Positions 1,281-41,537 of a stretch of DNA of 64,000 bases are shown piece by piece. The stretch covers positions 27,494 to 91,493 of the forward strand of contig MGJU01000014.1 of NCBI GenBank assembly GCA_001794435.1, given 5' to 3'. This stretch comes from Candidatus Yanofskybacteria bacterium RIFCSPHIGHO2_02_FULL_43_17. GTDB taxonomy: Bacteria > Patescibacteriota > Minisyncoccia > 2-02-FULL-40-12 > GWA2-44-9. Made by a program: the position numbers and the translations under genes. A model generated the notes under the pieces. It was not told the DNA's origin, did no database searches, and saw only the letters and a list, made by a program, of their open reading frames with translations. The first letter of the stretch is position 1. Each line of letters starts with the position of its first letter.

Positions 1281-3390
1281 TAGTATACAAGGAGTGGAAC
1301 TTCCAAAGACATACAACCCGCAAGAAACAGAGGACAGGATTTACAAACTCTGGGAAGAGAGCGGTTTTTTTACGCCGGAGAATTTGCCCCTTCGACAAGA
1401 TCAGGACAAGCCGGAAGAAGTAAGAAAATTTGTTACCTGTATCGCTCCCCCAAACATAACCGGCGAACTGCATATGGGACATGCTCTTGAACTTACAATG
1501 CAGGATATTTTGGTACGAATGAAAAGAATGCAAGGACACAAAACTTTATGGGTGCCGGGGATAGATCATGCTGGCATCGCCGCCCAAAATGTAGTGGAGA
1601 AACAACTCAAAAAGGAAGGCCTGACCCGCCATGACCTTGGTCGCGAAAAATTCGAACAAAGAGTCCGGGAGTGGAAAGAAAAATACGGAACCGCTATTCT
1701 TGGCCAGTTCAAGAAACTTGGTATTTCCGTTGACTGGTCTAGAACCCGCTACACTCGGGATGAAGAATACGAAAAAGCAGTCTGTAACGCATTCGACAAA
1801 TACAAAAAAGAGGGTTGGATCTATAAAGGCCTTAGGGTGGTTAATTGGTGTACCAGATGCGGAACCGGAATTTCCGACCTTGAAGTAAATTATGTTCCCG
1901 AAAAAACCAAACTTTACTTCATTAAATATGGCCCCTTTACTCTGGCCACCACCAGACCGGAAACAAAGCTCGGCGACACGGCCCTCGCAGTTCATCCCGG
2001 CGACGAACGCTATCGTGATTATGTGGGCAAAGAAATTGAGATCGAATCCGTGGATAACAATATTCCCCTTCTGGAAGAACCTAAGCTGAAAACAATAAAG
2101 ATAGAGGTGGTAGCCGATGAATCCGTGGACAAAGAATTCGGCACCGGAATAATCAAGGTAACGCCGGCTCACGATACCACCGATTTTGAGATCGCCCAAC
2201 GCCACAATCTGCCCTCGATCAAAATAATCGACGAACACGGAAAAATGAATAAGAATGCGGGACAAAGATATCAAGGCATGAAAACTGCCGAAGCCAGAGA
2301 ACAGATTGCCAAAGATCTCGAAGCCATCGGCTTGATGGGTAAGATTGAGGACTATGAACACAACATCGCCCGCTGTGACCGCTGCGACTCCGTGATCGAA
2401 CCCCTGCCTTCGGAACAATGGTTTTTAAAAGTGTCTGAACTTGCAAAGTTAGCCGATGAGGCGATCCGCAACAACGAAGTAGAGATATATCCCAAAAACT
2501 GGAAAGATGTCACGTTGAAATGGATAAACAATATGAGAGACTGGAATATCTCTCGCCAACTTTGGTGGGGACACAAAATACCGATCGAAGGCGAGGAAGA
2601 TGTTCTGGACACATGGTTTTCATCCGCTCTTTGGCCTTTCGCCGTCTTGGGTTGGCCGGAAGAAACAAAAGACATGCGAGAATACTATCCCACTCAATTT
2701 ATAACTTCGGATAGGGGTATTGTGTTTTTGTGGCAGATCCGGATGATATTTTCCGGAAAATATTTCACCGGCAAAGTCCCCTTCTCCGTAATTTATATTC
2801 ATCCCACGGTTTTAACAAAAGACGGCAAAAGAATGTCAAAATCACTTGGCACGGGCATTGATCCGGTCGGACTTATTGAGAAATATGGAGCTGACGCTCT
2901 GCGATTCGGCCTAGCCTATCAGAATACCGGGATACAAGACATGCGGTTCAATGAAGATGTCATACTCATGGGGAAAAAGTTCGCCAACAAATTGTGGAAC
3001 ATCGCCAGATATATTTTGATGAAAACGGGAGACAATTTTGAAGCCAAAAGAACTAACCATGAAATCATAAAAAAAATGGAGAGCACAGTCTCTTTGGTTT
3101 CAGAAAACATAAATTCATACAAATTCGGCGAGGCGGCCCACGAACTATATGATTTCATCTGGCACGATCTTGCCGACAAATACATAGAGGAGACCAAGGA
3201 TAAAGAAGATATCGAAACCAAACAAACACTAGCTTACGTTTTAATTAATTCCTTAAAACTTCTCCACCCTTTTATGCCTTTCGTGACTGAAGAAATTTGG
3301 TCAAAATTACCCACAAAAGACCCCGAAAAATCGCAAAGCGATCTCGGAGCAAGCAAGAAATTACTGCTTGTGGAAGAATGGCCTGCCTAA
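1261..3390 (+). CDS. valS: valyl-tRNA synthetase (short form lacking C-terminal coiled coil)
   Basis: PPNITGELHMGHA class-I motif, TTRPETKLGDTALAVHP editing-domain motif, KMSKSLGTGIDP. Confidence 0.9.
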   Translation: MPIWDSDSIQGVELPKTYNPQETEDRIYKLWEESGFFTPENLPLRQDQDKPEEVRKFVTCIAPPNITGELHMGHALELTMQDILVRMKRMQGHKTLWVPGIDHAGIAAQNVVEKQLKKEGLTRHDLGREKFEQRVREWKEKYGTAILGQFKKLGISVDWSRTRYTRDEEYEKAVCNAFDKYKKEGWIYKGLRVVNWCTRCGTGISDLEVNYVPEKTKLYFIKYGPFTLATTRPETKLGDTALAVHPGDERYRDYVGKEIEIESVDNNIPLLEEPKLKTIKIEVVADESVDKEFGTGIIKVTPAHDTTDFEIAQRHNLPSIKIIDEHGKMNKNAGQRYQGMKTAEAREQIAKDLEAIGLMGKIEDYEHNIARCDRCDSVIEPLPSEQWFLKVSELAKLADEAIRNNEVEIYPKNWKDVTLKWINNMRDWNISRQLWWGHKIPIEGEEDVLDTWFSSALWPFAVLGWPEETKDMREYYPTQFITSDRGIVFLWQIRMIFSGKYFTGKVPFSVIYIHPTVLTKDGKRMSKSLGTGIDPVGLIEKYGADALRFGLAYQNTGIQDMRFNEDVILMGKKFANKLWNIARYILMKTGDNFEAKRTNHEIIKKMESTVSLVSENINSYKFGEAAHELYDFIWHDLADKYIEETKDKEDIETKQTLAYVLINSLKLLHPFMPFVTEEIWSKLPTKDPEKSQSDLGASKKLLLVEEWPA

Positions 3391-3393
3391 AAA

Positions 3394-4149
3394 TTGTATA
3401 ATAGGGTTATGTCCCCCGTTTACGCGGCAACATTAGTAACCCTCGGCCTCGCGCCCAGTTTGGTGTGGCTTTCTTTTTACCTAAGAAGAGACTGCCATCC
3501 GGAACCAAAGCATCTCCTAACCAAAGCATTCTTAATGGGGATCATCATCTCCCCTCTCGCTATTTTGCTCCAGTTGGGATTTGCCGAGCTTAGAACCCTG
3601 ATCGGCTTAGAGATTTTCAGCCAGGGCACGCCCACGTTTTTTCTGTGGTCTTCGTTTGTGGAAGAATTTCTGAAATTTTTTGCCATTTATTTGGTGATTT
3701 TAAGGAGTCCGGAATTCGATGAACCGGTTGACGGGATGATATATATGATAACTGCCGCTCTAGGATTCGCCGCCATAGAGAACATACTGGTAATGTTAAA
3801 CCTCATTCCAAACGGCGCCGGTACCGCCCTCAATACGCTGGCCCTCCGATTCATAGGAGCAACACTTCTTCATGCGCTGGCTTCGGGGCTTATAGGTTAT
3901 TTCCTGGCTATGTCCTGGTTCTTTCAGGAACACAAAAAGAAATTGATAGTGTTCGGACTCGCCATCGCGACGCTTTTCCACGCGGCATTCAATATGCTTA
4001 TCGCTTTCGCGCAGGAATCAGCCAATCCCGTCGTCGGTCTGGTCTACACCACCTTCCTGTTAATAATTCTGGCCTTTTTAGTTTCCGTATTATTTGATAA
4101 AATAAAAGAGAGGCACATACATTCACAATCTCTAAATCCTAATTTCTAA
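3394..4149 (+). CDS. PrsW-like intramembrane metalloprotease (CAAX-protease-like)
   Basis: polytopic membrane protein with EEFLKF, FAAIEN and H motifs typical of the PrsW family. Confidence 0.6.
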   Translation: MYNRVMSPVYAATLVTLGLAPSLVWLSFYLRRDCHPEPKHLLTKAFLMGIIISPLAILLQLGFAELRTLIGLEIFSQGTPTFFLWSSFVEEFLKFFAIYLVILRSPEFDEPVDGMIYMITAALGFAAIENILVMLNLIPNGAGTALNTLALRFIGATLLHALASGLIGYFLAMSWFFQEHKKKLIVFGLAIATLFHAAFNMLIAFAQESANPVVGLVYTTFLLIILAFLVSVLFDKIKERHIHSQSLNPNF

Positions 4150-4207
4150 TCTCTAAATTTTTTGATACTTAAGATTGTTTAGAGATTAGGGTTTAGAAAT
4201 TAGAGAC
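4127..4207. promoter_or_regulatory. ~30-bp near-perfect inverted repeat spanning the prsW-like stop and the hsp20 5' region
   Basis: AATCTCTAAATCCTAATTTCTAATCTCTAAA ... TTTAGAGATTAGGGTTTAGAAATTAGAGAC; ends 10 nt before the hsp20 ATG. Confidence 0.5.
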
Positions 4208-4216
4208 TTTACACAG

Positions 4217-4651
4217 ATGGACGATTTTTTTTCTGATGACAACAATGAATTAGATCCGATCCTGGCAGTTTCCGAAAAGTCCGCCCCAAAGAAGCGAGAT
4301 CTCGCTCTTAACGAGGGTGATTTCGACGGCCAACTGACAGTTGACGTATACCAGACCGAGGATGACATCGTCGTCCAGTCAACCATAGCCGGAGTCGACC
4401 AGAACGATATAGATATAACCGTCACAAACGATATGGTTACAATAAGGGGCAAAAGAACAACGCCGGACAAGGTAAAATCGTCTGATTATTACTATCAGGA
4501 GCTATTCTGGGGGCCTTTTTCAAGATCAATAATCCTGCCCGAGGATGTTGATTCTGATAATTCAAGGGCATCAATGAAGAACGGGCTTTTGACCATACGC
4601 CTGCCCAAATTGGCCAAAACACGAACGAAAAAAATAAAAATATCGGGATAA
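4217..4651 (+). CDS. Hsp20/alpha-crystallin family small heat-shock protein
   Basis: alpha-crystallin domain pattern (GLLTIRLPK C-terminal strand). Confidence 0.85.
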   Translation: MDDFFSDDNNELDPILAVSEKSAPKKRDLALNEGDFDGQLTVDVYQTEDDIVVQSTIAGVDQNDIDITVTNDMVTIRGKRTTPDKVKSSDYYYQELFWGPFSRSIILPEDVDSDNSRASMKNGLLTIRLPKLAKTRTKKIKISG

Positions 4652-25635: not shown

Positions 25636-26304
25636 ATGGCACGAGTTAAAGACAGACGTCTAGCAATTAAGTTGCGGGAGCAAGGCAAAAGTTGGACTGA
25701 GATAAGAAGCGTACTTACTGTAAGTAAGGACACTTTATCTCGTTGGTTAAAAGACGCTTGCCTCACAGAAGAACAGAGACAGAAAATAGTCCTCGAAGGA
25801 AAAACTAGGCGGATAGAAAACTATATTCTGTCTACCAAAGCAAGAAGAAAAAGAATTGATGAAACGTACCTTCAAAATAAAGCCCGGGAGTTTGGCAAAG
25901 TAAACAAGCGAGACTTTCTTGTGGCGGGGTTGTTTTTATATTTAGGTGAGGGGGCCAAGTCAACTAGGTCACGCATACAAATTACCAATAGTGATCCCTC
26001 GATTATTCAATTTTCTATCTACTGGCTAACAAAAATACTAAAAATTCCTTATCGAAAAATAAAAGTTCAACTGCACTTATATACAGATATGGCTATTGAG
26101 AGAGAAATTGATTTTTGGCAAAAAATTACTATGCTAAATAGAGATCAGTTCATTAAACCCTATATAAAGAGGACATCTTCTTTACGAATTGATCACCCAA
26201 GTTTCGGTCACGGAACTTGCTCGATATATTATCATAATGCGAAAATAAAAGACGAAATTATGGCAGGAATAAAGGTTATAATGAATTCAGCAACGCGCCT
26301 GTAG
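25636..26304 (+). CDS. LAGLIDADG-type homing endonuclease-like protein with N-terminal HTH
   Basis: LAGLFLYLGEGAK single LAGLIDADG motif; N-terminal resolvase-like HTH; immediately upstream of tRNA pair. Confidence 0.55.
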   Translation: MARVKDRRLAIKLREQGKSWTEIRSVLTVSKDTLSRWLKDACLTEEQRQKIVLEGKTRRIENYILSTKARRKRIDETYLQNKAREFGKVNKRDFLVAGLFLYLGEGAKSTRSRIQITNSDPSIIQFSIYWLTKILKIPYRKIKVQLHLYTDMAIEREIDFWQKITMLNRDQFIKPYIKRTSSLRIDHPSFGHGTCSIYYHNAKIKDEIMAGIKVIMNSATRL

Positions 26305-26370
26305 CTCAGTTGGTAGAGCACACGACTTATAATCGTGCGGTCCCTGGTTCGAGTCCAGGCAGGCGCACCA
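26295..26370 (+). tRNA. tRNA-Ile with unmodified-type anticodon UAU (reads AUA)
   Basis: canonical cloverleaf, all stems Watson-Crick; anticodon loop CUUAUAA; CCA encoded. Confidence 0.7.
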
Positions 26371-37263: not shown

Positions 37264-37291
37264 CCATTCGACGAGTCACAACCAACAACCT

Positions 37292-37320
37292 AAAACCCGC
37301 AAAAGCGGGTTTTAGGTTTT
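37292..37320. terminator. bidirectional intrinsic terminator
   Basis: AAAACCCGCAAAAGCGGGTTTT between convergent genes. Confidence 0.7.
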
Positions 37321-38066: not shown

Positions 38067-38142
38067 TGGTGCGCCCACCAGGGCTCGAACCTGGGACAAA
38101 TCGATTAAGAGTCGATTGCTCTACCAACTGAGCTATGGGCGC
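38067..38142 (-). tRNA. tRNA-Lys (anticodon CUU)
   Basis: anticodon loop CUCUUAA; CCA encoded; GC hairpin terminator downstream at 38020-38050. Confidence 0.85.
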
Positions 38143-38166
38143 ATATCGTTTGATTTTATCAAATTC

Positions 38167-38241
38167 TGGTGCCCCCGCCAGGGCTCGAACCCGGAATTCG
38201 ACGTCCGAAGCGTCGCGTGATATCCATTTCACTACAGGGGC
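38167..38241 (-). tRNA. tRNA-Arg (anticodon UCG)
   Basis: anticodon loop CUUCGGA; CCA encoded. Confidence 0.8.
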
Positions 38242-38284
38242 ATGACTACGGGATTATTATACCAGAAAATCCGGATTTTTCAAT

Positions 38285-39568
38285 TTATTTTTTGTATCTC
38301 TTTTTGAGGTCTTGAATTATTTTAGGAAGCACTTTGAGAACATAGTCTATGTCCTTTTTTGTTGTTTGTCTGCCCATAGAAAATCTTAGGGCTCCGTTAA
38401 TGTATTTTTTATCCAACCCTATGGCCTTGAGTACATGAGACGGCTCAACGGCATGAGAGGTGCAGGCTGAACCGCTTCCGGCACATATTCCGTATTTATC
38501 GAGTTCCAACAAAAGCACTTCACTCGTCAGGTCTGGAACCGATATGTTCACATTATTCGGCAACCTGTTGATAATCGACTTCGCAAGTCGATTATCAACA
38601 GGTCCGTTAATTTTAACGTCCGGTAACAAGGCGCCCACTTTTTCGATAAGGTCATCCCTCAAGCCAGCAAGCCGTTCGCCTTCTTGTTCTTGCCCTGAGC
38701 TTGTGGATTCGACAGGCTCACCACCCTGAGGCTTTGTCGAATGGGTCGAATGAGTATCTATGTTATCTAAAGCCACAGCCAATCCGCCGATAGCCATCAG
38801 GTTCTCGGTCCCGGCTCTCAGGCCAGCCTCTTGCTCTCCACCTAACATAATAGGAGAAAGCTTAACCCCCCTCCTTGCATACAAAACACCTACTCCTTTC
38901 GGGCCATATATTTTGGAACCGTTAAAAGTAAGCAGGTCAACACCAAGATGGTTGACGTTCATATCCAGATATTCCGTCGCCTGACAAGCGTCGACATGAA
39001 AAATTGGAAATTTTTCATGTCGTATATTTCGAAATTTCGATATGTCGGCATACTCTTCACGAAAATCTCGAATTATTTTCGAGATTTTCGTGATCGGTTC
39101 AATGGTGCCTATTTCGTTATTGGCATACATTACCGACACCAGAACCGTACGGGAGTTTAGCTTGTTTTTTAGATCATTTAAATCCACCAGCCCATTTTGG
39201 TCTACTCTGACGAATTTAATTTCCCATCCTTTTTGCTTTAAAAACTTCAACGGCCTGAGTATTGACGGGTGTTCAATGGGAGTAGAGATTATCTCTCTTC
39301 GACTACGTTTAGAACAAGCATGGGCCAGTCCGAAAATGGCTAAGTTATTAGCTTCTGTACCGGAAGCAGTGAAAATTATCTCGTCCGAATGTGCCCCTAG
39401 AAATCTTGCCACCTTCAATCGAGCCCGTTCTGTATATTCCCGCGCTTCCCTACCACGGTCGTTGTAAGAAGACGGGTTGCCATACAGTTTAGTGACTTTG
39501 ACTATTTCTGCGACGACGTTTTCATCTATCGGAGTAGAGGCGGCGTTGTCTAAATAAACTTTTTTCAT
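38285..39568 (-). CDS. cysteine desulfurase (IscS/NifS-like aminotransferase class V) with low-complexity insertion
   Basis: MKKVYLDNAASTP N-terminus, SGTEANNLAI, PLP-fold pattern; insertion STHSTKPQGGEPVESTSSGQEQEGE. Confidence 0.8.
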   Translation of the reverse strand: MKKVYLDNAASTPIDENVVAEIVKVTKLYGNPSSYNDRGREAREYTERARLKVARFLGAHSDEIIFTASGTEANNLAIFGLAHACSKRSRREIISTPIEHPSILRPLKFLKQKGWEIKFVRVDQNGLVDLNDLKNKLNSRTVLVSVMYANNEIGTIEPITKISKIIRDFREEYADISKFRNIRHEKFPIFHVDACQATEYLDMNVNHLGVDLLTFNGSKIYGPKGVGVLYARRGVKLSPIMLGGEQEAGLRAGTENLMAIGGLAVALDNIDTHSTHSTKPQGGEPVESTSSGQEQEGERLAGLRDDLIEKVGALLPDVKINGPVDNRLAKSIINRLPNNVNISVPDLTSEVLLLELDKYGICAGSGSACTSHAVEPSHVLKAIGLDKKYINGALRFSMGRQTTKKDIDYVLKVLPKIIQDLKKRYKK

Positions 39569-39942
39569 ACGAACCTTTTCCTCTCGGGCCAAAAGAAAAG
39601 AGATAAGAACCCCCCTATAAGGCCCACGTCTCTGATAACAACCTCATTTATGCCAAAAGTAAACAAAATAGCGACCAGAAACATCAGCGCCAAAAAAGAG
39701 AATGTCTTTATGAAAATATTACTCAAAACACTTGCACCTACCAATAACTCAAAAACGCCGCTGGCATAGACAACGTCCATCCCACCGAGACCCGCCTTTG
39801 AAGCAACCGACAAAATTCCTTGGGAAATCCAGGCACTAAGCCAATACTGGGGATTCAGGAATTTATCCACTCCGAACCAAATGAAAACCGTCGCCAGACC
39901 GAGACGTAAAAACAGATTGGAATAACGAAGGGACTGAAACAT
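39565..39942 (-). CDS. DoxX-family membrane protein
   Basis: four TM helices; LGLATVFIWFGVDKF N-terminal pattern. Confidence 0.5.
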   Translation of the reverse strand: MFQSLRYSNLFLRLGLATVFIWFGVDKFLNPQYWLSAWISQGILSVASKAGLGGMDVVYASGVFELLVGASVLSNIFIKTFSFLALMFLVAILFTFGINEVVIRDVGLIGGFLSLFFWPERKRFV

Positions 39943-39944
39943 AA

Positions 39945-39976
39945 TGGTATATTGACAAAGACTAAAAATTAGTGTA
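39945..39976 (+). promoter_or_regulatory. consensus sigma70-type promoter TTGACA-17-TATAAT with no downstream ORF
   Basis: tattgacaaagactaaaaattagtgtataatac. Confidence 0.65.
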
Positions 39977-39981
39977 TAATA

Positions 39982-40232
39982 CAGATATCCTTAACTAGAG
40001 TCCGTACTGGCGACTTCGTATTTACACGGCATAAAATCTTCACCCCGTTTTACGGGAAGTGAAAATTCATTACTCTTCTATTATACAGAAGAATAGGCTT
40101 GCCGCAACAAGTATCGGGTCGCTGGTTCACCCCGCACTTAACGAGGGTCGGCAAAAACAGCCGTTAAGAGCTTGTCCTCGTTAAGTGCGGGGTTCAAACA
40201 AAAACTGTCGCTTCAAGCGACAGTTTTTGTTA
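39982..40232 (+). ncRNA. candidate small RNA (ORF-free transcript between consensus promoter and terminator)
   Basis: no ATG-initiated ORF; 17-bp perfect stem CCCCGCACTTAACGAGG/CCTCGTTAAGTGCGGGG; ends at AAAAACTGTCGCTTCAAGCGACAGTTTTTGTT. Confidence 0.4.
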
Positions 40233-41537
40233 TGCAGAGCAGTGGGATTCGATATACTCCAAAGCTTTCTCATTCACTATCCTTGACGCTATATTCTCTT
40301 TTATCTTTAGTGGATTGATGTCGGCTTGGCTGGTCTCACCGGCTATGATGGCCGACTGAATAGCCTGATCAGCCAACCCCTCGATTTCTTCTTGAGATGC
40401 TTTGATGCCAAGTTCCTTGGCCAACTTTCTTAGTATCAAGGATGTTTTAACCTGTTTTACAGCATCTTTGGTCCAGTCGTTTTTCAGTTCTTCCTGGGTC
40501 TTTCCTATTTTTGCCAAGTATAAACCGAGTTCCAGGCCTTTTCCGTGAAGAGTGTGATCAAAGTCAGAGACCATTATGTCGAGTTGTCTGTTGAGCAAGC
40601 TGTCGGGGACCTCTATTTTAGAACGGTCAATGATGTTATCCAAGATCTCCAGACGCAGTTTTTGGCTTTCTTTAGTTTTTTTCTCCTGAGTCAAGCCTTC
40701 TTTTAAGCTTTCTCTTAATTCCGTAAGGCTAGCGAAACGGCCCAAGGATCTGGCAAAATCATCGCTAATTTCCGGCCTTATAACTTTCTTGATATCACTC
40801 ACTTTAACATTGAAGTCCAAATTTTTACCGGCAATGTCTTTATGAAAATAGTCTTCAGGAGCGGTAAGAGAAAAGGACTTCTCATCCCCTCTCTTCATTC
40901 CCACCAACTGATCTTCAAACCCCGGGATGAAATTTCGGCCGCCTATTATAAGGGGGTGGCTCTTGCTTATGCCCCCTTCAATGATCTGACCGTCTTTCTT
41001 CACTTCAAAATCAACCTCGACCCTGTCTCCTTCTTCTGCTGTCTCGTTGTCGTCTTTGCTGATAAAGTTGGCCCTTGAGTTTTTGATAAATTCTATGGCA
41101 TCATCCACTTCTTTTTCTTCCACTGTTACGTCCTGCCTTTTTACTTTTATCTTGCTAAGATCGGTAAGTTCCACACCCGGAAACAAGTCTAGCAGTATCG
41201 AATACTTGAATTGGGCCGATTCGTTGCTTTCTATTGACAATTGGGATGTGTCAAGAACATCGAGAGAATTATCCTTGATAACATCAGACAAACTTTCTTC
41301 TACCGCTATTTCAAGGGCTAGTGTTCTTACCTGTTCTTGATCAAGATGTTTTTTAAGCAATTCTTTGGGAGCCTTTCCTTTTCTGAATCCCTTTACCTCA
41401 AGGTTGACGCCCAACGCACTCTCGGCTTTATTTAAGTATCTCTGGAGATCTTCCCGATCAAGTTCCACAGTCGCCTTGACTTGATTATTGTTCAGTTTCT
41501 TGAGGTTGTGTTTCATTTTTTTCGGAAGTTTGATCAA
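40230..41537 (-). CDS. tig: trigger factor
   Basis: N-terminal ribosome-binding domain GFRKGKAPK, FKBP-type PPIase core; start may be at 41516. Confidence 0.9.
   Translation of the reverse strand: MIKLPKKMKHNLKKLNNNQVKATVELDREDLQRYLNKAESALGVNLEVKGFRKGKAPKELLKKHLDQEQVRTLALEIAVEESLSDVIKDNSLDVLDTSQLSIESNESAQFKYSILLDLFPGVELTDLSKIKVKRQDVTVEEKEVDDAIEFIKNSRANFISKDDNETAEEGDRVEVDFEVKKDGQIIEGGISKSHPLIIGGRNFIPGFEDQLVGMKRGDEKSFSLTAPEDYFHKDIAGKNLDFNVKVSDIKKVIRPEISDDFARSLGRFASLTELRESLKEGLTQEKKTKESQKLRLEILDNIIDRSKIEVPDSLLNRQLDIMVSDFDHTLHGKGLELGLYLAKIGKTQEELKNDWTKDAVKQVKTSLILRKLAKELGIKASQEEIEGLADQAIQSAIIAGETSQADINPLKIKENIASRIVNEKALEYIESHCSA

Follow-up and report, generated by a model that had tools for sequence, protein, structure and literature searches.

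What is transcribed from the strongest promoter of the DNA segment analysed here (64,000 nt, hereafter the window), which points into a gap between two genes of the opposite strand, tig, encoding trigger factor, and a gene for a DoxX-like membrane protein? The promoter, TTGACA-17-TATAAT, is identical to the consensus at 12 of 12 positions and is the only exact match within the 64 kb (3 matches with one mismatch allowed, against 0.42 expected), in agreement with the preliminary description of this DNA, which had picked it as the best in the window. Judged solely by spacing, transcription is predicted to start near A39987. The transcript would run into an intrinsic terminator that is common to the RNA and to the convergent tig, as had been noted before; the T-tract of this terminator overlaps the tig stop codon (40230-40232). 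The description of the intervening region as ORF-free also holds: it contains nothing but mechanical open reading frames of 41 and 34 aa. Read from promoter to terminator, the predicted transcript would be about 245 nt long in the window organism, or about 180 nt without a 63-nt insertion discussed below, and some 150-160 nt in the relatives with the shortest versions (Table 1).

The -35 box is only 10 nt away from the start codon of DoxX in the window, and because no good minus-strand promoter for DoxX was seen between tig and DoxX, the transcription of DoxX must either cross the RNA gene or start inside it. Elsewhere in the window, a promoter close to the consensus, TTGAAA-16-TATAAT with an upstream TG (38256-38283, minus strand), is located directly upstream of the genes for tRNA-Arg(UCG) and tRNA-Lys(CUU) (38067-38241, minus strand), so that the near-consensus promoters noted in the window precede stable-RNA genes. 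A second perfect bidirectional terminator, with a 14-bp stem (AACCTAAAACCCGC...GCGGGTTTTAGGTT, 37287-37318), separates two convergent ORFs. The mechanical tig ORF begins with TTG at 41537 and shares 53 nt (41485-41537) with the end of nusA; the tig orthologues are 426-428 aa long, and given that their alignments start around residue 8 of the window ORF, the true start of tig is probably an internal ATG (MKHNL...). The NifS-like ORF that comes after DoxX has two features of its own (38563-38603 and 38700-38770): a 19-bp perfect palindrome where the conserved ...DNRLAKSIINRLPNN... segment is encoded and, in its product, a 22-aa low-complexity insertion (HSTHSTKPQGGEPVESTSSGQ-like) relative to the orthologue in locus L011 (68% identity overall).

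Table 1. Features of the RNA gene and of the adjacent genes, in window coordinates.
Feature	Position	Strand	Remarks
Promoter	39952-39980	+	-35 TTGACA 39952-39957; spacer 17 nt; -10 TATAAT 39975-39980
5' leader	39987-40005	+	variable; single-stranded in the predicted fold
Y-shaped core	40006-40126	+	121 nt; defined by covariance model and covariation
P1a	40006-40016 with 40116-40126	+	paired
C.C mismatch	40017/40115	+	U.G and G.U pairs on either side
P1b	40018-40023 with 40109-40114	+	paired
Internal loop	40024-40026 (variable) vs 40105-40108 (CAAC; CAA conserved)	+	asymmetric
P2	40027-40031 with 40100-40104	+	short helix, followed by CAAC
A-rich junction UAAAAUC	40032-40038	+	conserved
Hairpin H1	40039-40063	+	sequence and length vary
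Hairpin H2	40073-40096	+	loop AUUAUAC 40080-40086
63-nt hairpin insertion	40130-40192	+	17-bp perfect arms; lineage-specific; 3' of the core
Terminator	40197-40231	both	intrinsic; 16-bp stem; stem lies between an A-tract (5') and a T-tract (3')
tig (trigger factor)	40230-41537	-	convergent with the RNA gene
DoxX-like membrane protein	39565-39942	-	125 aa
NifS-like cysteine desulfurase ORF	38285-39592	-	comes after DoxX

The predicted fold of the plus-strand RNA is highly stable (-101.8 kcal/mol, z = -8.6 against shuffled sequence). The minus strand of the same region folds equally well (z = -9.8), so that folding energy alone cannot assign the strand; the comparative data do. Orthologous loci were gathered by exact-protein look-ups, by a scan of a genome collection with the tig protein (2 loci), and by a scan of metagenomes with a tig alignment, where 9 of 80 loci, among the matches listed, were close relatives. 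The trigger factor of the window is 86% identical to that of locus L001 (a MAG labelled Candidatus Wildermuthbacteria) and 70% identical to that of L002 (labelled Candidatus Yanofskybacteria), and the named homologues among the top 120 matches are mostly from Yanofskybacteria, which places the organism of the window among the Parcubacteria (CPR). The gene order nusA-tig-gap-DoxX-NifS is conserved among the relatives, and the same arrangement, always with the RNA on the strand opposite tig, was found in at least 16 further distinct loci with tig products 47-86% identical to that of the window (L001, L002, L010-L015, L017-L020, L022, L023, L096, and L098), which, together with the window, make 17 family members.

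The signals that delimit the gene are conserved along with its position. The absence of promoter-like hexamers from orthologous regions, which the preliminary description had named beforehand as evidence against the transcript, is not what is seen: the promoter is present in all 16 such regions recovered. With the window included, all 17 members have TTGACA followed by a 17-nt spacer; 13 of them have TATAAT as the -10 box, and the others have TACAAT, TATGAT, TATAGT or TATTAT. A terminator consisting of an A-tract, a stem, and a T-tract lies 3' of the RNA in every member. Between the -10 box and the P1 helix there are 12-37 nt, depending on the member, which leaves a leader of approximately 5-30 nt with poor sequence conservation. 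No ORF within the RNA is conserved among the relatives (L096 has none at all, and in L022 none exceeds 3 codons), and a coding small ORF was rejected for this reason. Two features of individual loci can be recorded here. In three loci, L010, L015 (~3110-3250), and L018 (~2260-2390), the RNA promoter is separated from the start of DoxX by GC-rich blocks, 110-150 nt long and full of repeated GCGGAC/GTCCGC(T) motifs; in L010, such blocks are also found just past the terminator (~4050-4170 and ~3790-3850 for the two places together), and the window contains none. In L098, a 93-aa ORF of the GIY-YIG / T5orf172 type (1217-1498) is wedged between nusA and tig.

An independent MAFFT alignment of 13 sequences, analysed with RNAalifold, yielded a common fold of 27 pairs, 20 of which show compensatory changes. 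The covariance model built from this alignment recovers all members at 47-122 bits and detects a single copy in the window (39981-40129, 118 bits, E = 3e-24). In the model alignment of 15 distinct sequences, which is fitted to the model and hence favours the structure although the independent MAFFT alignment agrees with it, standard pairs fill 92.2% of the cells, compared with 78.0 +/- 1.2% in shuffles, and 20 of the 27 pairs are changed on both sides, compared with 11.7 +/- 1.9. None of the 500 shuffles reached the observed value for any covariation measure, and when the pairing partners were slid by 1-3 columns, pairing dropped to 36-48%.

The core defined in this way is a three-way junction. 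Its closing rod, formed by P1a, P1b, and P2, comprises about 23 bp and contains two conserved irregularities, the U.G/C.C/G.U motif and the asymmetric internal loop with the CAA sequence. H1 is a hairpin in every member, but the sequences are unrelated: the stem consists of 7-11 bp, usually capped by a stable tetraloop in the relatives, the loops include UUCG, CGAG, CCGG, and GUUUUAC, and there are no conserved internal loops. H2 has a pyrimidine-rich 5' strand and a purine-rich 3' strand, with double changes in 5 of its 6 pairs; its stem is 6 bp or longer, and its loop, which in some members varies in length between 5 and 11 nt, is ATTATA in 12 of 15 aligned sequences (alignment A4) and ATCATA, ATGATA or TTATTA in the others. 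Invariant positions are found in the U.G/C.C/G.U motif and the CAA, in the first three P1 pairs (ACU/GGU), in the A-rich junction, and in the H2 loop. The conserved sequence blocks are short (CGU, GCAA, AUCGG, and AUUAUA), and so are the conserved unpaired segments, which are of A/U character (AUUAUA, CAA, and UAAAA). Inspection of the alignment by eye revealed no kink-turn, sarcin-ricin/loop E motif, T-loop or hammerhead core.

The pattern of conservation identifies the functional strand. Three wobble pairs are nearly invariant in the 15-sequence model alignment (U.G in 15 of 15 sequences, G.U in 14, and U.G in 11) and would become A.C mismatches on the complementary strand; the plus strand is therefore the structured one, and the minus strand, despite folding equally well, was ruled out as the functional strand by the invariant G.U pairs. 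These observations bear on the possibility that the locus acts only in cis, with convergent or divergent transcription insulating or disturbing tig or DoxX-NifS, or with the region serving as a minus-strand 5' untranslated region of DoxX, the RNA itself being functionless. Such a role would be in keeping with the proximity of the -35 box to the DoxX start codon, with the failure to see a good minus-strand DoxX promoter, and with the stable fold of the minus strand, but it appears very improbable: the compensatory changes that keep the helices show that the RNA structure is under selection, the minus strand is excluded by the G.U pairs, and the association with DoxX is loose. Specifically, the RNA still adjoins tig in L020 and L023, which lack DoxX, and in L096, where a MamS/MamX-like gene replaces both DoxX and NifS, and the promoter and DoxX are 110-150 nt apart in L010, L015, and L018. 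The synteny of the RNA follows tig and is not tied to DoxX-NifS.

The region proposed in the preliminary description as a candidate sRNA is, then, a stand-alone small RNA gene that begins with a strong promoter and ends with the terminator it has in common with tig; we put the probability that it is a real structured non-coding RNA gene at about 0.93. The same description had drawn attention to a 17-bp perfect stem, and the weight given to this stem has to be revised. The stem does exist, with one arm (CCCCGCACTTAACGAGG) at 40130-40146 and the exact reverse complement at 40176-40192 (0.11 expected by chance), but it is not the structural centrepiece. Every contig of the same species (L003-L009) has the 63-nt hairpin, and every other family member lacks it; in relatives without it, including the closest (L001, tig 86% identical, and L015, 76%), GGTTCA leads directly into the terminator. 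Conservation of the stem in relatives, suggested earlier as a check, thus turned out to be lacking throughout, and because 16 of 16 relatives are without the stem, we conclude that it belongs to a 63-nt insertion that is specific to the lineage and lies 3' of the core; the stem as a conserved element was discarded on the same grounds.

The hairpin is flanked by direct GGTTCA repeats (40124-40129 and 40191-40196), one of which overlaps the hairpin arm. Read as a possible miniature inverted-repeat element, the hairpin shows 17-bp terminal inverted repeats and a direct repeat that overlaps one arm; the window and the recovered locus DNA, about 400 kb in all, gave no second copy. Further copies of the 17-bp arm with 3 or fewer mismatches are also absent from the window, except for one chance-level site at 4300.

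Other members contain insertions of their own. In L001, a 268-nt insert bounded by a 21-bp perfect inverted repeat, GGAACCTATCTCGCAAATAAT, lies between P2 and H1 (2118-2385, minus strand) and folds as a separate branched domain that leaves the core fold intact; it includes a stretch, TAGGCTTGCCGACACAGGTGTATC, that resembles the 3' half of the RNA itself, has no Rfam match, and is not found again in the recovered locus DNA. In L020 (~2898-3200, minus strand), a domain of about 100 nt with a 19-bp inverted repeat resides within H1, so that large inserts occur in the H1 arm of the junction both within H1 (L020) and just 5' of it (L001). Extra hairpins between P1 and the terminator are found in L020 and L023 (~940-1025), as is the 3' hairpin of the window, and L013 has a hairpin insert within the 3' strand region (~3870-3905). 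The inserts of the family members are independent and lineage-specific, and the core is spared.

We compared the RNA with the known families using all 4227 models of Rfam 15, at the gathering threshold for the whole window, at E ≤ 10 for positions 39850-40300, at E ≤ 5 for 12 member loci, and at E ≤ 1 for 3 more. No family, riboswitches and ribozymes included, matched the core in any of the 16 members scanned. The models for 6S RNA, SRP RNA, 5S rRNA, RNase P RNA, and tmRNA gave no match in the region at E ≤ 10 or in the 15 relatives at E ≤ 5 or E ≤ 1, which was also the outcome of the Rfam search for SRP RNA, 6S RNA, and tmRNA that the preliminary description had recommended; the permissive scans returned only tRNAs elsewhere and weak, terminator-driven noise (STnc240, RsmY, sraL, ohsC, and microRNAs). 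Accordingly, the RNA is well supported as a stand-alone structured small RNA of a new family that matches no Rfam RNA, and the copy in the window is the first described member of this family, which is conserved in very small, uncultivated groundwater bacteria related to Candidatus Yanofskybacteria (Parcubacteria, CPR). The family resembles the orphan non-coding RNA motifs of the raiA and ROOL class in being defined by covariation, in running from promoter to terminator as a stand-alone unit, and in having no assigned function; it differs from them in that 0 of the 4227 Rfam 15 models match it, in its occurrence, so far, in the Yanofskybacteria clade only, and in its link to the 3' side of tig.

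A riboswitch or another cis-regulatory leader requires a downstream gene on the same strand, whereas here, in 17 of 17 members, the transcript meets a terminator that faces the 3' end of tig. The suggestion that the region might be a riboswitch-less leader was rejected for this reason, there being no downstream gene on the strand of the RNA.

The housekeeping identities considered earlier, 4.5S/SRP or 6S RNA, find no support in the Rfam searches at permissive thresholds or in the covarying three-way junction, but a very divergent version of a universal RNA (4.5S/SRP RNA, 5S rRNA or Y RNA) missed by Rfam has to be considered. SRP, 6S, and RNase P RNAs were not seen elsewhere in the window at the Rfam gathering threshold, which would leave room for such an identity; however, a window of 64 kb is not expected to hold every housekeeping RNA, the genome size expected for this group being about 1 Mb. 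The 5S rRNA is, likewise, a three-way junction of similar size, but RF00001 does not match, and the closing rod here comprises 23 bp, compared with about 10 bp in helix I of 5S rRNA. Domain IV of bacterial SRP RNA combines a GNAR tetraloop with symmetric and asymmetric loops that are conserved, in contrast to the variable loops of H1, the sequence of which is not conserved, and the AUUAUAC loop of H2. Bacterial Y RNAs are located next to the rsr (Ro) gene, whereas the neighbours here are nusA, tig, DoxX, and NifS, and YrlA (RF02553) produced only weak matches on tRNA genes elsewhere in the loci and none at the RNA. With SRP RNA, 5S rRNA, 6S RNA, RNase P RNA, and YrlA all lacking a match at the RNA in 16 members under permissive thresholds, we regard this identity as extremely unlikely.

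No copy of the RNA was found beside tig in L021 (tig 44% identical) or L097 (52%), where tig and DoxX almost abut, and the covariance model detected no family copy in 70 loci with distant tig genes, among the matches listed. In the loci sampled so far, the family is confined to a narrow clade around Yanofskybacteria, an odd distribution for a housekeeping RNA.

How might such an RNA act? The layout of the gene, which has its own promoter, a conserved hairpin loop, and a U-tailed Rho-independent terminator, is the classic one for a trans-acting base-pairing sRNA, in which the AUUAUAC loop of H2, perhaps together with the CU-rich H2 strand, or else the 5' leader, would pair with mRNAs and control their translation or stability; in every case, the 5' strand of H2 is rich in pyrimidines and, in this respect, is similar to an anti-Shine-Dalgarno sequence. 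The details of conservation do not fit this mode of action comfortably. The leader is unconserved, covarying pairs hold the CU-rich strand within a helix, and most of the conservation is concentrated in irregularities of the long helix that pairing with mRNA would not need. Because the sole conserved unpaired stretch, the candidate seed, consists of only 6-7 nt, all of them A or U, and would be a weak one, recognition by a protein fits better than pairing with mRNAs, and a base-pairing role appears unlikely, if worth keeping in view.

The H2 loop shows a resemblance of a different kind, to the anticodon loop of tRNA-Ile(UAU), CUUAUAA, with which AUUAUAC shares UUAUA, including the equivalents of U33 and A37. 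Unlike in the tRNA, the H2 stem has at least 6 bp and the loop length is variable in some members; no other tRNA-like element was detected in the RNA, and neither ARAGORN nor the Rfam tRNA model calls H2. The resemblance is probably a coincidence. The window itself encodes a tRNA-Ile(UAU) (26295-26370, plus strand), adjoining tRNA-Val(UAC), which suggests, by its anticodon, that AUA is decoded by a UAU tRNA in this organism.

We tentatively favour, at slightly less than even odds, a mode of action based on protein binding, an argument that proceeds from the pattern of conservation: the helices covary freely, the irregularities, the junction, and the H2 loop are invariant, the leader is unconserved, and the periphery accepts inserts. 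Under this proposal, a constitutive-looking, consensus sigma70-type promoter would drive synthesis of the RNA up to the intrinsic terminator shared with tig, and the RNA, abundant and stable, would act in trans by binding a protein, as a scaffold or a decoy. The conserved irregularities of the helix and the H2 loop would form the recognition surface; the RNA would not need its peripheral arms, and their tolerance of large insertions would follow from this. None of the neighbouring genes encodes an obvious RNA-binding partner. Weighed together, the identity of the RNA and this putative mechanism stand only a little better than an even chance.

The most specific candidate for a partner is RNA polymerase or its sigma subunit, and we consider this choice doubtful. 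It would make the RNA a decoy of the sigma-RNA polymerase holoenzyme similar to 6S RNA (ssrS, RF00013), with the P1-P2 rod mimicking downstream duplex DNA and the junction together with H2 mimicking an open -10 region. In 6S RNA, the 3' half plays the part of the non-template strand; here, too, the -10-like motif sits in the 3' half of the RNA. The H2 loop holds UAUUAU or UAUAAU. The promoters that drive the family have TGTATAAT as their -10 region, and its perfect reverse complement is AUUAUACA. However, when the genome is AT-rich, an AU-rich loop says little in favour of -10 mimicry, and members with a variant -10 box show no matching change in the loop.

The overall comparison with 6S RNA, for which the features were taken from PMC11077062, is similarly divided. 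The RNA analysed here is alike in that it is a stand-alone, abundant-looking transcript of approximately 150-180 nt with its ends paired in a long closing stem (P1, 40006-40023/40109-40126), is transcribed from the strongest promoter of the window, retains its structure with poorly kept sequence, and has an A/U-rich unpaired middle that includes the -10-like motif. It is unlike 6S RNA in that the 6S model matches neither the region, even at E ≤ 10, nor the 15 relatives, and in architecture: 6S RNA is an irregular rod with a large central bubble and a long terminal stem, whereas the covarying fold here joins two short hairpins to the rod at a three-way junction, and H1, the stand-in for the upstream duplex, has only 7-11 bp. 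A homology-free counterpart is not without parallel, given that Ms1 of mycobacteria and CoRP of corynebacteria are lineage-specific RNAs that bind polymerase without homology to 6S RNA (PMC11077062). They set a precedent for a clade-restricted, abundant, structured RNA that acts on a housekeeping machine, although the likeness to them is functional speculation only. Ms1, at about 300 nt, is also much longer than the RNA described here. On balance, a 6S-like decoy is improbable. The same low expectation applies to the broader formulation that the RNA is an unrecognised, abundant housekeeping RNP component of Parcubacteria of the Yanofskybacteria clade, most specifically a 6S counterpart with the H2 loop, UAUUAUAC/UAUAAU, facing sigma and the rod lying in the downstream DNA channel.

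A literature search on non-coding RNA or 6S RNA in CPR, Patescibacteria or Parcubacteria yielded no description of such an RNA and nothing relevant to it. With the promoter, terminator, strand, and covarying fold all conserved, the family is ready for Rfam. Parcubacteria have very small genomes, and a gene that persists there under a perfect promoter probably does not stand idle. Domains enclosed by inverted repeats have entered this gene several times independently and have left the core undamaged, which is reminiscent of the insertions in the rRNA genes of CPR bacteria and gives a second reason for a closer look at the family. The family is of moderate interest as it stands; the interest would be high should its partner prove to be a core machine. 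If that partner is RNA polymerase or another such machine, these reduced organisms would have replaced a widespread regulator by one of their own design.
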